From the IMG/VR virus record IMGVR_UViG_3300031857_000107: a stretch of 20,000 bases of DNA, one strand, 5' to 3'. Positions 7,480 through 11,630 of this stretch are shown here, one piece after another. Made by a program: the position numbers and the translations under genes. Origin of the DNA: an uncultured virus (IMG/VR IMGVR_UViG_3300031857_000107). Its lineage: Duplodnaviria; Heunggongvirae; Uroviricota; Caudoviricetes. The notes under the pieces were generated by a model. The model searched no databases and had not been told where the DNA came from. It worked only from the letters and a program-made list of their open reading frames with translations. Position 1 is the stretch's first letter, and every line of letters begins with the position of its first letter.

Positions 7480-7731
7480 ATGGAAAATCCATCACCCAAG
7501 ATTGGTCGTGGTCGTCCCAAGGGAGCGACCTCCACTGTTGAAATCACGTTGGGCGAGCTTCTCGCGAAGCTCAACAACGATGCGAACGCCACTGTTGTTG
7601 TTGGTCGCGTTTGGTACAATAAGTATCAGAACGTGCCTGTAGCTTCAGCGCAAGATGGCGATTCACTTCCTCAAGAGATTCAGAATCAGCTTGACGAAGA
7701 GTCTGTTGCAGAGTTCACTATCACCCAGTAA
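7480..7731 (+). CDS. Small putative DNA-binding protein with AT-hook-like motif
   Basis: MENPSPKIGRGRPKG N-terminus and acidic C-terminus. Start placed at 7480 because a promoter lies immediately upstream. Confidence 0.7.
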   Translation: MENPSPKIGRGRPKGATSTVEITLGELLAKLNNDANATVVVGRVWYNKYQNVPVASAQDGDSLPQEIQNQLDEESVAEFTITQ

Positions 7732-8660
7732 TGAACTACTTCGCTGAACTTGTTGGGCAAGAAGAAGTTAAACGCAAGCTTTCATTTTATTTGGAAGCTC
7801 ATGCTAAGACCGAACTTGTACCGTTTTTGAACTTCGTTGGCGCAAAAGGTTTAGGCAAGACTGCATTTGTTCGCGAATTTGCCAAGAACATTTATAACAC
7901 CACCGGAGTCAATAAGCCACTACTTGAGCTAAATAGCTCTAGTATTAAATCGGGGAATCAGTTTTTCGAACAAGTTTTTCTGCCCCACATTCAAGATCAA
8001 GAAATTATTTGTTTCTTTGATGAAGCGCACTGTCTGCCAAGAGACTTTACTTACGCATTACTTTCTATTCTCTCTACAGAGAAAGATCATGTAATTGATT
8101 ATAATGCTGGCAAAGCAAATTATATTTTCAATTTTAAGAAGCATCATTTTATATTCGCGACAACTGAATCAGATAAGCTATTTATTCCGTTGCGTGATCG
8201 ATTGACGACGATTGAATTTGCAGATTATAATACAAATGAATTGAAGGAAATTTTTCAAAAAGCTCTACCAAATATTGAGTTTGATGAAGAAGCTCTATCA
8301 ATGTTATCTGAAACTTCCCGAGGCAATGCACGTTCTTGTGTGCTTCGCGCTAAGGAGGTTAAGCTGTACGCTGATCGATTTGAGGTCAAGCGTTTCACCA
8401 AGGAAGACGCTGAGAAGTTCTTTTTTATTCTTGATATTCTTCCTCATGGGCTAAATAGAATTGAATGGCAGATACTAAATATTCTTCGTAAAGAAGGTAA
8501 CTGTACTCTTTCTATGCTCGCTGCAAAAACTGGTTTGTCAAGAACCGCGATTCAGCGTGATCACGAATTGTATCTTATTCGTAAAGGATTTATCAGCATT
8601 GATAATGTTAGATATATTACGAGTAATGGATGCAAAGTATTAGAACTGGTTAAGAAATAG
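7731..8660 (+). CDS. ruvB: RuvB-like Holliday junction branch-migration AAA+ ATPase
   Basis: VGQEEVK, Walker A GAKGLGKT, Walker B FFDEAH, ATT...PLRDR, RGNAR and C-terminal winged helix (ELYLIRKGFI). Confidence 0.9.
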   Translation: MNYFAELVGQEEVKRKLSFYLEAHAKTELVPFLNFVGAKGLGKTAFVREFAKNIYNTTGVNKPLLELNSSSIKSGNQFFEQVFLPHIQDQEIICFFDEAHCLPRDFTYALLSILSTEKDHVIDYNAGKANYIFNFKKHHFIFATTESDKLFIPLRDRLTTIEFADYNTNELKEIFQKALPNIEFDEEALSMLSETSRGNARSCVLRAKEVKLYADRFEVKRFTKEDAEKFFFILDILPHGLNRIEWQILNILRKEGNCTLSMLAAKTGLSRTAIQRDHELYLIRKGFISIDNVRYITSNGCKVLELVKK

Positions 8661-8678
8661 TGTATAATATTTAAGTGT

Positions 8679-8753
8679 GCTTCGCAAGCATAGATGCCGA
8701 TGCAGGGGTTTTGTAAACCTCAGAGCAGAGTTGAAGTCTCTGGCGAAGCTCCA
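8679..8753 (+). tRNA. trnT: tRNA-Thr(UGU), atypical D and T loops
   Basis: Acceptor GCTTCGC/GCGAAGC, anticodon arm GGGGT-TTTGTAA-ACCTC, T arm CAGAG-TTGAAGT-CTCTG, encoded CCA. Confidence 0.85.
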
Positions 8754-8762
8754 CTTTCCCCC

Positions 8763-8885: not shown

Positions 8886-8907
8886 TTTTTTTCAGTTCTT
8901 TTAAATT

Positions 8908-8980
8908 TTAAGCAGTGGAGTCACTCACAATATAATGTGTGTTATTTTTGTGAGATAGGAATTCGTTCCTCGCTGCTTAA
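8908..8980 (+). ncRNA. Candidate structured RNA (73-nt three-way junction)
   Basis: Closing stem TTAAGCAGTG/CGCTGCTTAA; hairpins CTCACAA..TTGTGAG and AGGAA-TTCG-TTCCT. Confidence 0.55.
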
Positions 8981-8986
8981 TCCTTT

Positions 8987-9060
8987 TAAGTAAGATAGTA
9001 GATTTAATATTTTGATGCGAGTATTAAATTCGAAAGTAATTGGTATTACAATCTTACTTA
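8987..9060 (+). ncRNA. Candidate structured RNA (74-nt three-way junction)
   Basis: Perfect closing stem TAAGTAAGAT/ATCTTACTTA; hairpins ATTTAATATT/AGTATTAAAT and GTAAT-TGGT-ATTAC. Confidence 0.55.
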
Positions 9061-9094
9061 GTTCTTTTAAAATTTAATATGTAGTAGTTTCTAT

Positions 9095-9167
9095 GGGCCG
9101 TTAGCATAATGGTTTGTGCAGCGAACTCATAATTCGTCGGTTGCTGGTTCAAGTCCAGCACGGCCCA
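9095..9167 (+). tRNA. tRNA with CAU anticodon, likely Ile2 (lysidine type), otherwise elongator Met; no encoded CCA
   Basis: Acceptor GGGCCGT/ACGGCCC (paired G1-C72, so not initiator; C4-G69 and C5-G68 as in TilS substrates), loop CTCATAA, T arm GCTGG-TTCAAGT-CCAGC. Confidence 0.88.
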
Positions 9168-9191
9168 CAGAGACTATTGCGTATTTATTAT

Positions 9192-9263
9192 AGTCCAATA
9201 ACTCAACGGTAGAGTAAACTCTTTATAAGGGTGAAGTTGCGGGTTCGAATCCCGCTTGGACTA
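9192..9263 (+). tRNA. trnI: tRNA-Ile(UAU); no encoded CCA
   Basis: Acceptor AGTCCAA/TTGGACT, D arm ACTC/GAGT, loop TTTATAA on a 4-bp stem ACTC/GGGT, T arm GCGGG-TTCGAAT-CCCGC. Confidence 0.82.
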
Positions 9264-9269
9264 TGATAC

Positions 9270-9344
9270 GGTCCATTCGTCTAGTGGTTAGGACAGTAGG
9301 TTTTCAACCTATTAACAAGAGTTCGATTCTCTTATGGACTACCA
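9270..9344 (+). tRNA. trnE: tRNA-Glu(UUC)
   Basis: GGTCCAT/ATGGACT acceptor, GTAGG-TTTTCAA-CCTAT anticodon arm, CCA. Confidence 0.93.
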
Positions 9345-9356
9345 AATTTTTCCCCC

Positions 9357-9385
9357 TTGACAGGGGCCATAATCTCTAGTAGATT
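9357..9385 (+). promoter_or_regulatory. Sigma70-like promoter for the tRNA-Leu/ncRNA operon
   Basis: TTGACA-N17-TAGATT, followed by CGTTCTTT. Confidence 0.75.
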
Positions 9386-9402
9386 GTGCGCGTTCTTTAA
9401 AT

Positions 9403-9478
9403 GGGTGCATAGACCAGCGGAAGAGTCAACAGACTTAAAATCTGTCAAGCGATGGTTCGAATCCATCTGCACCTACCA
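9403..9478 (+). tRNA. trnL: tRNA-Leu(UAA) with short variable loop
   Basis: GGGTGCA/TGCACCT acceptor, ACAGA-CTTAAAA-TCTGT anticodon arm, 5-nt variable region CAAGC, A73, CCA. Confidence 0.9.
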
Positions 9479-9497
9479 CTTTTGTTCTTTTACATTT

Positions 9498-9587
9498 TCT
9501 TTTTCAATATGAATCCCCCGGCTTCCAAGAGCGAACCCATGATAACAGACTTGGAAAATCTGTTACGGAATGGTTCTGAGAAAAAGA
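9498..9587 (+). ncRNA. Candidate structured RNA with kissing loops
   Basis: Closing TCTTTTTC/GAAAAAGA; TTCCAAG (9523-9529) is complementary to loop CTTGGAA (9550-9556) of the TAACAGA/TCTGTTA hairpin. Confidence 0.55.
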
Positions 9588-9588
9588 T

Positions 9589-9618
9589 TACAGCTTAGGA
9601 GTCATGACCTAAGCTGTA
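9589..9618. repeat. Perfect 11-bp inverted repeat with self-complementary loop
   Basis: TACAGCTTAGG-AGTCATGA-CCTAAGCTGTA. Confidence 0.8.
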
Positions 9619-9622
9619 TAAA

Positions 9623-9818
9623 TTTTGCAGCAATGAGGGCAGTCGTCTACATAAGACGTAGTTTGGGGTAGCCAGTGAAAAGCCTCTCGGAAAGGATCTG
9701 GTACAAATTGGGGCGGAGATCAAATTAAAAAAATAGTGCTTTTCGAACTATTTGAATTGATTGAAGCGGATGCCTAGTTGGGAACACATCAAACAACTGA
9801 TCGACCTGATCTGCAAAA
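9623..9818 (+). ncRNA. Candidate ~196-nt multi-stem RNA with pseudoknot
   Basis: Closing TTTTGCAG/CTGCAAAA, four internal stems, and TGAAAAGC/GCTTTTCG long-range complementarity. Confidence 0.6.
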
Positions 9819-9824
9819 AACATA

Positions 9825-9891
9825 CAGTGCGCCCAAGTGATCTTGTTTTGAGTCGCTTTACACTGAGACAACAATGGGCTGAATTTTACTG
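9825..9891 (+). ncRNA. Candidate interrupted-hairpin RNA
   Basis: Nested CAGT/ACTG, GCCCA/TGGGC and TTGTTTT(G)AGT/ACTGAGACAA stems. Confidence 0.4.
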
Positions 9892-9913
9892 AAATTTAGT
9901 TCTTTTATAATTT

Positions 9914-10039
9914 TATTCGATGTCAGCAAGCTCATGATGCTGAAGATAGAGTTGATAATTGCAAGTATCAATGTCGTCGTGGAGAGTGAGTGGGTTCATA
10001 AAAATCCTTCGTGATTTCCCCCTAAACCAACATCGAATA
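9914..10039 (+). ncRNA. Candidate 126-nt four-way-junction RNA
   Basis: Perfect closing TATTCGATGT/ACATCGAATA; arms CAGCA/TGCTG, TTGATA/TATCAA and GGAGA..GGGTT/AATCC..TTTCC. Confidence 0.6.
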
Positions 10040-10043
10040 TATT

Positions 10044-10105
10044 TTTCGCTAGAAGGACAAGGGGCTTCATGCCCCGTTCTGTAAAAAGACTTACTTCTAG
10101 TGGGA
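10044..10105 (+). ncRNA. Candidate 62-nt three-way-junction RNA
   Basis: 12-bp closing TTTCGCTAGAAG/CTTCTAGTGGGA (with G-U pairs), GGGGC-TTCAT-GCCCC hairpin and a short TCT/AGA hairpin. Confidence 0.5.
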
Positions 10106-10111
10106 TTTAAT

Positions 10112-10139
10112 TTGACAATACTATAATAGAGTATAAGAT
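10112..10139 (+). promoter_or_regulatory. Sigma70-like promoter for tRNA-Arg/Asn
   Basis: TTGACA-N16-TAAGAT. Confidence 0.6.
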
Positions 10140-10154
10140 AGTTGTAGATTTTAC

Positions 10155-10232
10155 GTTCCCGTAGCTCAGTTGGATTAGAGCAAAAGCCTTCTAAGCTTTC
10201 GGTCACAGGTTCGAATCCTGTCGGGAACGCCA
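10155..10232 (+). tRNA. trnR: tRNA-Arg(UCU)
   Basis: GTTCCCG/CGGGAAC acceptor, AAAGC-CTTCTAA-GCTTT anticodon arm, CCA. Confidence 0.95.
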
Positions 10233-10239
10233 ATTTAAC

Positions 10240-10314
10240 TCCAGAGTATTTCAACGGTAGAAAAGCGCACTGTTAATGCGCGGGTTGAAGGTTCGAATCC
10301 TTCCTCTGGAGCCA
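10240..10314 (+). tRNA. trnN: tRNA-Asn(GUU)
   Basis: TCCAGAG/CTCTGGA acceptor, GCGCA-CTGTTAA-TGCGC anticodon arm, G73, CCA. Confidence 0.95.
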
Positions 10315-10319
10315 CTTTT

Positions 10320-11213
10320 TCAATACATCTTAAATCCACTCAAGTCTACTTCATTAACTTTATATCCACTACTTAATGAAGATATTGTATTATTTACTTC
10401 GTTTATATAACTAGGAATATTTGTTGCCAAGCCAGCCATAGCTCCAAGTGTCATATACCAGCCGCCGATCAATACAACTTCATTATTAATAATAGTAGAA
10501 ACAATATTGCCGCTGTCGCCGCCAATTAATGCTTCGAAATATTGCGCTCTGTTAGGATCTTTTGAAATATTTATTAAGGTATTATTTGATCCGTAAGTAG
10601 TATTAAGTAAACCATTTTCTCCAATTAAAGCTTTTCTTTCTTGATCAGAATACAATATTGGAAAATTAATTTTATTTGCGTCAAAGTATTTAAGATAGTT
10701 AGCTGGCAATACATTATATATTTTTAGTGAAGCATCGACTTCTCTATCAAGTTCACCAATTAAAATATCAGTATTTGCTACTCGCTTTGTTTTCATGACA
10801 TTATAAACAAGTGATACATCTTTATTGTTAATAAAGAAAATCATGAATGGCGATTGCGAATAAGGCACATGATTCGCCAACAAAACGTGCTTCTTAGTTA
10901 TAAGTGTTCCGCCGCCAACTCCACCAAGAGGAACGACAGCAGCGGCATATCCAGTTAGATCAAGACTTTTTGCCCAACAATTAGTATTTCTGGGCCAATT
11001 ATAAGGATTAGCATAAGGTGTTAATATATTCTTTTCTTTCTTATCTTTAATTAAATTATCGAAGTTAGAAGAAATATGAGAAAATAGATCTAATTTATTT
11101 GTGGTTATAGATTTTGGTTTGGGCGCATCATTTAAAGCTTCGTTCTTAGCTTCTGCGATTATTTTTTGAATTAAAATTGTGTGATCTGCGAGTAGTTGTT
11201 CTAGGGTTGTCAT
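10320..11213 (-). CDS. Trypsin-like serine protease
   Basis: GGGTLITKKHVLLANH (His), TDILIG (Asp) and GGDSG (Ser). Start likely MTTLEQ at 11213, since the longer start overlaps the divergent promoter. Confidence 0.82.
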   Translation of the reverse strand: MTTLEQLLADHTILIQKIIAEAKNEALNDAPKPKSITTNKLDLFSHISSNFDNLIKDKKEKNILTPYANPYNWPRNTNCWAKSLDLTGYAAAVVPLGGVGGGTLITKKHVLLANHVPYSQSPFMIFFINNKDVSLVYNVMKTKRVANTDILIGELDREVDASLKIYNVLPANYLKYFDANKINFPILYSDQERKALIGENGLLNTTYGSNNTLINISKDPNRAQYFEALIGGDSGNIVSTIINNEVVLIGGWYMTLGAMAGLATNIPSYINEVNNTISSLSSGYKVNEVDLSGFKMY

Positions 11214-11242
11214 ACATATTTTCTTACACCGAAAAATGCCGC

Positions 11243-11271
11243 TTGACAAGGGAAAATTTTTCTGCCATCAT
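11243..11271 (+). promoter_or_regulatory. Sigma70-like promoter of the small-gene operon
   Basis: TTGACA-N17-CATCAT with TGn extension, 11 nt before the ATG. Confidence 0.6.
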
Positions 11272-11282
11272 GTTCGCACGAT

Positions 11283-11630
11283 ATGAAAATAGTAATTAAT
11301 AAAAAATACGGCGGCTTTGGCCTTAGCGAAGAAGCTGTTCTATTATATGGTGATAAAAAAGGGCTTAACATCATAGCCCAACAAGATGAAAAAATAAAAA
11401 CCATCATTCATTATTATTTAGACGAAAAGAAAGATGGAAATCAATTCGGTGAGTGGGAGATTGAAAGAAATGATCCAGTTCTTGTAGAAGTTGTCGAGCA
11501 TCTTGGTGATTTAGCAAATGGACGTTATTCTAAATTAAAGGTTGTTGAAGTACCTGATGATATTAAATGGTATATTCACGATTATGATGGCGTAGAAGAA
11601 GTGCATGAAGAGCATAGAAAGTGGATTTAA
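11283..11630 (+). CDS. Conserved phage hypothetical protein, paralog of 4374..4670
   Basis: MKIVINKKYGGFGLS...RNDPVLV...LKVVEVPDD...YDGVEEVHEEHRKW. Confidence 0.85.
   Translation: MKIVINKKYGGFGLSEEAVLLYGDKKGLNIIAQQDEKIKTIIHYYLDEKKDGNQFGEWEIERNDPVLVEVVEHLGDLANGRYSKLKVVEVPDDIKWYIHDYDGVEEVHEEHRKWI

Follow-up and report, generated by a model that had tools for sequence, protein, structure and literature searches.

A predicted phage tRNA-island RNA family joining a constant core to an exchangeable head

Comparative analysis of a 20,000-nt window of uncultured phage DNA (the whole stretch analyzed; IMG/VR record IMGVR_UViG_3300031857_000107) reveals a 188-nt RNA unit that, judged from its sequence relatives, is a real, conserved, structured and uncatalogued family of one uncultured freshwater phage clade. 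The alignments depict a modular, non-coding RNA on the + strand, composed of a constant core and an exchangeable head. The long-range complementarity that had drawn attention to this region is predicted to sit in an optional domain grafted onto the smaller core. The original prediction of a complex structured non-coding RNA is supported by covariation; the four-arm domain in which it was drawn is replaced here, as two of its arms break in relatives and swapped partners repair the fold.

Results

The RNA unit and its relatives

The ends of the unit are fixed by tandem copies at two loci (L025 and L040), by differing neighbors, and by locus L002 (RuvB 97% identical), from which the RNA module is precisely absent. 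Sequences were gathered from RuvB-anchored loci, which are pattern-free, and by scanning viral, metagenome and genome collections with patterns; scan matches were filtered by script and model. The raw matches of the looser scans were largely due to chance, and such matches were discarded. The resulting family holds at least 53 distinct sequences, the window's included, in three length classes: long (184-189 nt, at least 14 members), short (84-90 nt, at least 38) and a single variant of 119 nt. R1, the short-form model, scores 62 bits against 9627-9814. Among the RuvB-anchored loci, L001 and L003 carry the full element, and L004, L005, L008-L010, L012, L014, L016 and L017 lack its middle; the module was not found in the islands of L449-L451. 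Long and short forms are separate genes, because both stand in tandem in one genome (L025, L040, L240, L251 and L249).

The long forms fall into two lineages, 76-80% identical between and 89-99% within. A joined-core tree (69 columns, 53 rows), poorly resolved, places them at three positions among the short forms, an arrangement that fits head swapping or repeated head loss. The distal head was not found apart from the core among 530 stored sequences. In more distant phages, with records all below 90% completeness, R1 finds the core in 4 of 21 loci, 7 of 19 whole records and 0 of 4 others. Scans of cellular genomes gave 42 pattern matches, of which two were kept (L371 and L380, both scored by R1), the other 40 being filtered by pattern alone; the two kept lie on small metagenome-bin contigs near-identical to phage copies and are read as probable mis-binned phage DNA.

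Table 1. Features of the RNA unit and its surroundings, in window coordinates
Feature	Position	Strand	Support
RNA module, long form, 188 nt, ends GCAG...CTGC	9627-9814	+	Absence in L002, tandem copies, changing neighbors
P1, 5' strand	9627-9643	+	Two-sided changes GC:27/CG:6, GC:27/AU:4, CG:27/GC:6 (short forms)
P2 hairpin, 4 bp, variable loop, stacks directly on P1	9644-9658	+	UA:26/GC:6 at third pair
P3, 5' strand, pairs with 9789-9794	9661-9668	+	100% paired, 2 two-sided pairs, long forms
Arm P5: 6-bp helix, 9-nt bulge strand, 3-bp hairpin (9685-87/9693-95)	9669-9703	+	34/35 identical between long lineages
Bulge strand of the kiss, within the 9-nt bulge 9676-84	9676-9683	+	7 conserved pairs, 8 in the window copy
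Long arm P6, 6+3+5+7 bp	9704-9779	+	7 pairs with two-sided change
Apical loop, 9 nt	9738-9746	+	9/9 identical between lineages
Purine-rich single-stranded joiner closing the distal junction	9780-9788	+	9/9 identical between lineages
3' strands of P3 and P1, two 2-nt bulges	9789-9814	+	Core and long-form alignments
Small nested pseudoknot module, separable	9825-9879	+	97.8% paired on 12 sequences; inner-stem covariation
Sigma-70-like promoter, nearest upstream, before tRNA-Leu	9357-9385	+	TTGACA-17-TAGATT, 10/12; consensus match alone
boxA-like motif at head of RNA-module row	9484-9492	+	Exact 9-mer match

Fold of the core

The core (~85 nt) is composed of a long bulged terminal stem (P1), a stacked 4-bp hairpin (P2) and a 6-bp helix (P3), meeting in a three-way junction. 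Across 33 short forms the fold comprises 31 pairs with 95.5% of cells paired and 11 pairs changed on both sides, and pairing falls to 26-35% when partners are slid. From its base, P1 runs through 4 bp, a CA bulge, pairs around a G-G or k-turn-like loop, and then 3+1+4 bp. The P2 loop varies in sequence and in length (by 1-2 nt), so no reading frame is shared and the element is non-coding; many G-U changes place the RNA on the + strand. P3 shows several two-sided and G-U changes in short forms and ends in a G-A mismatch followed by a G-Y pair, which bears the distal domain in long forms and the tip in short ones. Short forms are more stable than their shuffles (z -1.1 to -3.5, 10 tried). Part of the invariance of the core, including that of the first ten bases, is imposed by the search patterns, a bias that only the RuvB-anchored loci escape; the first ten bases are invariant in the pattern-free loci L448, L452, L453 and L463 too.

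The start of P1 was likened to a k-turn or SECIS core, against the consensus as we take it to be. A standard kink-turn or SECIS-type core was rejected: the tandem G-A/A-G register is absent, compensatory changes pair G9637-C9806 and G9639-C9802, and the register of P1 lies one base off the standard k-turn motif; a complex k-turn with an extruded U may be an alternative. Likenesses to SRP Alu, Y RNA, T-box, hammerhead and hairpin-ribozyme RNAs, judged by eye against what we take to be their consensus, were also dropped.

The distal head and the revised long fold

In the long form an extra head of ~120 bases is added to the core, as a second junction with two arms at the P3 tip. P5 is replaced in short forms by a simple hairpin, which looks like a possible reduced P5. 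P6, a long arm with two hinges, is interrupted by a 3' bulge of 5 nt, a 4x4 loop and an asymmetric A-rich loop; its length is kept at 75-79 nt and it folds alike in each copy when folded alone. Between the lineages, P6 is ~50% identical (18/37 and 16/33) yet preserves the 5-nt bulge, the A-rich loop and the 9-nt apical loop. No pairing partner was found for the joiner at 9780-9788. The sole 119-nt member (L284, 1201-1319) has a two-hairpin head, one loop of which carries a 6-nt palindrome. From these alignments the P3 tip emerges as a cargo site that takes a simple hairpin, the 119-nt variant or the distal domain.

All sequence strings quoted in the original prediction lie where it placed them, and each helix it listed can pair in the window. 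Folded as a single sequence, the region reaches an MFE of -45.1 kcal/mol (z -0.25), matched by 68 of 200 shuffles, and the long form shows no extra stability over its shuffles (z +0.2 to +0.6); the case for structure therefore rests on relatives. The closing helix stands in its GCAG/CTGC portion (9627-30/9811-14), and the T-run and A-rich flanks that had been drawn into it fall outside, the 5' T-run being the same spacer as after tRNA CCA ends and the 3' flank often not A-rich. The hairpin at 9644-58 and the arm at 9719-61 hold in relatives. Two other arms give way: TAGTTTG/CAAATTG (9659-65/9704-10) is 84.7% paired and loses three pairs in 5 of 14 long forms, and AGTTG/CAACT (9776-80/9794-98) is 89.2% paired and loses one pair in 6 of 14. 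The revised partners are 9661-66/9789-94 (100% paired, 2 two-sided) and 9706-11/9774-79 (97.6%), and the stretches previously described as purine-rich joiners become mostly paired. Overall, the revised long fold is 98.2% paired, versus 94.7% for the earlier one, with 9 pairs changed on both sides in 14 sequences; these 14 represent two lineages, so the covariation counts stand for few independent events. RNAalifold recovers the revised helices unaided.

The bulge-loop kiss

The apical loop (9738-46) probably pairs with 9676-83 as a bulge-loop kiss of 7-8 bp, and with similar confidence the kiss is 7 bp with a purine-purine pair closing the loop. The complement, originally given as 8 bp, is beyond chance: when the unpaired bases are shuffled, 8 bp with G-U arise in 7 of 20,000 trials, seven Watson-Crick pairs in 8 of 20,000, and the 7-bp core in 55 of 10,000. 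The perfect identity of the loop (9/9) at the end of a half-diverged arm of constant length also favors the kiss. A check for compensatory change in 9676-9683/9738-9745 across 14 long forms finds seven pairs invariant and none covarying; the eighth, C9683-G9738, is broken without compensation in one of the 14 (L249, where the first base of the loop changes from G to A). A long-form search that left the kiss bases free returned seven matches, five of them known and two due to chance.

Whether the kiss closes within one molecule or joins copies is about evenly balanced. A crude toy model of rigid helices closes it in cis in 0 of 2,000,000 trials with both hinges at 90 degrees or less; closure is rare (256-1,800 of 2,000,000) and takes a bend of at least ~110 degrees at the A-rich loop. 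This strain, the palindromic variant and precedents among other RNAs argue for pairing in trans, whereas the fixed spacing of the two P6 hinges argues for a fold-back triangle. In its strict form, pairing in trans would make the kiss solely intermolecular, the long form being a self-assembling subunit of a ring, cage or filament, in the manner of phi29 pRNA or manA, and the short form a non-assembling or capping one. We consider this possible, at a rather low probability. Besides the missing cis closures at 90 degrees or less, it draws on the 6-nt palindromic loop of the 119-nt variant, which sits at the same site and could pair only between copies, and on the report, in part of its text, that phage RNAs below 200 nt build cages through kissing loops (bioRxiv 10.64898/2026.07.01.735769). 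The two hinge loops, however, are spaced as a fold-back triangle would have them, and an intramolecular bulge-loop kiss is described in a section of PMC8457670 as forming even in a tile designed against it. In addition, the palindrome is a single sequence with a rough chance of a few percent, 39 of the 53 listed members have no kiss, and the geometry model is crude.

The same two strands could instead remain unpaired and mimic tRNA anticodon loops as decoys for anticodon nucleases, which we judge very unlikely. Positions 2-6 of the apical loop equal the first five bases of the window's tRNA-Lys loop, so that this loop begins like tRNA-Lys(UUU), and the bulge strand begins like what we take to be the tRNA-Phe(GAA) loop; phage tRNA regions are reported to counter tRNA-cutting defenses. 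These are nevertheless 9-nt loops without the frame of an anticodon stem-loop, and exact complementarity over 7-8 bp is more simply explained by pairing.

The phage tRNA island

The source window is phage DNA whose short co-oriented genes include members of the RuvB, ThyX and YopX families. IMG/VR viral contigs encode relatives of its RuvB at 91-97% identity, and the completeness figures of these contigs indicate genomes of ~145 kb; no cultured phage close by RuvB was found, the best reaching 31% identity. Seven tRNA genes lie in the island around the RNA, and related loci are built likewise. An exact 9-mer, which we take to be boxA-like from its presumed consensus, occurs five times in the 20 kb, all on the + strand within 8895-9907, and five or more copies arise in 6 of 200 shuffles. 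Each of the five precedes an RNA gene or module. The motifs suggest that the phage would use host rRNA-type antitermination, which we assume to be the role of boxA in the host.

Among 76 distinct contexts of the matches listed, the 5' neighbor of the unit is another RNA module in 36, a tRNA CCA in 23, a boxA-like motif in 11 and another core copy in 6. On the 3' side, RNA modules and tRNAs on the same strand, with no protein gene, follow in 73 of 74 listed uncut contexts, the remaining one being unclassified. The order of modules up- and downstream is shuffled among relatives, and tandem copies occur. This layout bears on a cis-acting switch, a riboswitch-like aptamer or attenuator controlling the downstream island, which appears highly improbable. 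Such a switch could be seen in the terminator-like hairpin just 5' of the unit (9589-9618) and in the boxA-like motifs, which suggest regulation of the island at the level of elongation; yet the module overlaps neither a terminator nor a ribosome site, no protein gene lies 3' of it, and both the shuffled neighbor order and the tandem copies speak against control in cis.

Further elements populate the island and its relatives. Two more conserved RNA modules (9510-9587 and 9589-9618) lie 5' of the unit, the second an 11-bp hairpin with a terminator-like call on both strands, and folded self-contained modules with terminal helices occur at 8912-8980, 8987-9060, 9909-10044 and 10045-10105, their presence varying among relatives. 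tRNA-Met(CAT) (9076-9185) and tRNA-Ile(TAT) (9186-9268) have no encoded CCA, and their acceptor stems are lengthened by complementary arms of 13-26 nt; they are possibly tRNA mimics or unusual precursors. A tRNA-Thr(TGT)-like gene (8676-8755) receives no ARAGORN or Rfam call in the window and is called in ~90% identical relatives. On the - strand, a 309-aa ORF without a Pfam match (10320-11249) carries motifs that, by eye, resemble what we take to be a trypsin-type serine protease. In L448, tRNA genes are interrupted by group I intron-like inserts (7726-8007 and 9297-9620) scoring 41 and 27 bits, under the gathering score of 50; a similar insert was identified by eye in a tRNA gene of L040 (~1200-1470). 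The L448 island also holds, at 9780-11450, at least 10 RNA modules that lack annotation, several of them with a tRNA T-arm-like hairpin at the end, and Rfam finds nothing in these except a weak tRNA match. In L449, a NifU_N (IscU-like) gene (7647-8042, E 5.8e-47) lies between tRNA-Leu and tRNA-Arg, at the site that the row of RNA modules occupies in relatives.

The adjoining pseudoknot module and RNA-library contigs

The pseudoknot module at 9825-9879 lies directly 3' of the core in 66 of the 74 listed uncut contexts and behind a second core in seven; L002 has it without the core. By eye, its helix order resembles that which we take to characterize HDV-like ribozymes without P4, and its A-rich joiner suggests a triplex.

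The stretch 9480-9900, neighboring modules included, was found in 15 RNA runs from 9 studies, at 0.41-0.57 of words. Long-form contigs are present in all four RNA runs examined, and these contigs may include DNA. Contigs X1 (9518-9779) and X6 (9505-9714) span the 5' end of the unit, and X2 (9623-9879) and X9 (9636-9878), from two studies and each with one changed letter and one gap, span its 3' end. The latter two stop at the last helix of the pseudoknot module, a weak hint that this module may cap the 3' end of the RNA. In the X2 and X9 runs the flanking genes are without contigs, from which no meaning for expression level is drawn.

These observations also bear on a self-cleaving or processing ribozyme. 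The core, with or without the 3' pseudoknot module, would be a new one that cuts the island transcript, with the head as stabilizing periphery; we regard this as unlikely. The many conserved unpaired bases, the near-constant link to the pseudoknot module and a position directly behind tRNA 3' ends in 23 of 76 listed contexts would suit such an activity, and optional peripheral domains are common in ribozymes. Against it, Rfam gives no ribozyme match, a single helix, bordered by variable flanks, closes both ends of the unit, 39 of 53 listed members do without the pseudoknotted domain, and RNA-library contigs cross both ends, though these may be precursor or DNA.

Relationship to known RNAs

An Rfam search of the window returned tRNAs only, and 9600-9840 gave no match at E<=10 among 4,227 families; the short form gave matches at tRNA edges only, and seven related loci gave tRNAs only. 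By blastn, neither the region nor the short form has a real match in 50,697 phage records or any match in plasmids. Searches with exact 19-base strings and by topic found no literature on this RNA. Supplements 3-6 of Fremin 2023 (PMC10690425) contain no match to two strings and six data-set numbers, and its other files may include the family.

Known self-cleaving ribozymes, group I and II introns, RNase P and tmRNA were rejected as candidates, with no model or ARAGORN match; the original prediction had already noted the lack of hallmark sequences of RNase P RNA, tmRNA and group II intron domain V. A riboswitch was rejected as well: an aptamer with an expression platform 5' of a regulated gene is not what the contexts hold (73 of 74 listed uncut ones). 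Among the function classes first proposed, a scaffold RNA comes close to the present reading, and a riboswitch-like aptamer and a ribozyme are unsupported.

Nearest in kind are the tRNA-island RNAs manA, GOLLD, ROOL and T4 rnaC/rnaD, and by model, size and context the present RNA is a member of none. T4 rnaC and rnaD are small, stable, structured RNAs in a phage tRNA cluster and share this setting with the present RNA, which shows no sequence match in phage records. The phi29 prohead RNA differs: there is no Rfam pRNA match, and carrier records reach 174,551 bases (L116), against the small phi29-type genome.

manA (RF01745), as outlined in passages of PMC2864571 and bioRxiv 10.64898/2026.07.01.735769, is an RNA of <200 nt from aquatic phages with a conserved core and varied peripheral helices. 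Its loop pairings, first derived from comparative analysis, proved intermolecular according to part of Ren 2026 (bioRxiv 10.64898/2026.07.01.735769), and a section of Weinberg 2010 (PMC2864571) describes it 5' of protein genes. As far as these accounts extend, the two RNAs are alike in being small phage RNAs with a constant core, a differing periphery and loop-loop complementarity; unlike manA, the present RNA lies among tRNAs and RNA modules, has no RF01745 match and carries a single, optional kiss. GOLLD and ROOL are portrayed in excerpts of Kretsch 2025 (PMC12286853) as phage RNAs near tRNA islands, several hundred to >800 nt long, and ROOL pairings once drawn as pseudoknots proved, in the same excerpts, to be bridges between copies. 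On that description the present RNA shares the phage tRNA island and differs in its 84-189 nt and in giving no model match in the window or seven related loci. The branched kissing loop, which phi29 prohead RNA also exemplifies and in which an apical 9-nt loop pairs intra- or intermolecularly with a bulge or internal-loop strand (parts of Liu 2021, PMC8457670), has its counterpart in the 9738-46 loop and 9676-84 bulge of the revised fold; this is a motif rather than a family, and would pair 7-8 bp here versus 6 in the designed motif. We consider the present RNA a real and probably new family whose broad kind is known and whose core-plus-head design is unusual.

Discussion

The explanation that we favor, with about even confidence, is a trans-acting RNA gene with a predicted protein-binding core and an optional kissing head. 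The RNA would be transcribed with the tRNAs from island promoters and freed at U-rich spacers like those after tRNAs. The conserved unpaired bases of the ~85-nt core would most likely form a site for a host or phage protein: what is conserved in it is a set of bulges and mismatches on a closed helix, and, like the optional tRNAs nearby, the element is shuffled, duplicated and dispensable. The RNA would thus act in trans during infection, as a ligand or decoy. The kiss would either close the arm into a triangle or link copies into dimers, rings or chains displaying several cores, and the head would add compaction or valency.

The family offers a natural deletion series of ~87, 119 and 188 nt on one core, together with tandem copies and a natural null (L002), and with this series small transcripts can address both the binding partner of the core and the choice of the head between folding back and bridging copies. 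Several of the structured RNAs encoded in phage tRNA islands, whose function is open, have lately proved self-assembling, according to parts of PMC12286853 and bioRxiv 10.64898/2026.07.01.735769. More speculatively, and with a probability that we put low, the predicted protein-binding core would carry exchangeable heads for self-association (no head at all, a palindromic loop or a bulge-loop kiss) and serve as a multivalent sponge for a host factor. If this is true, RNA-only rings or filaments would display many cores, and their valency would be tuned by head swapping or by long and short copies in tandem.
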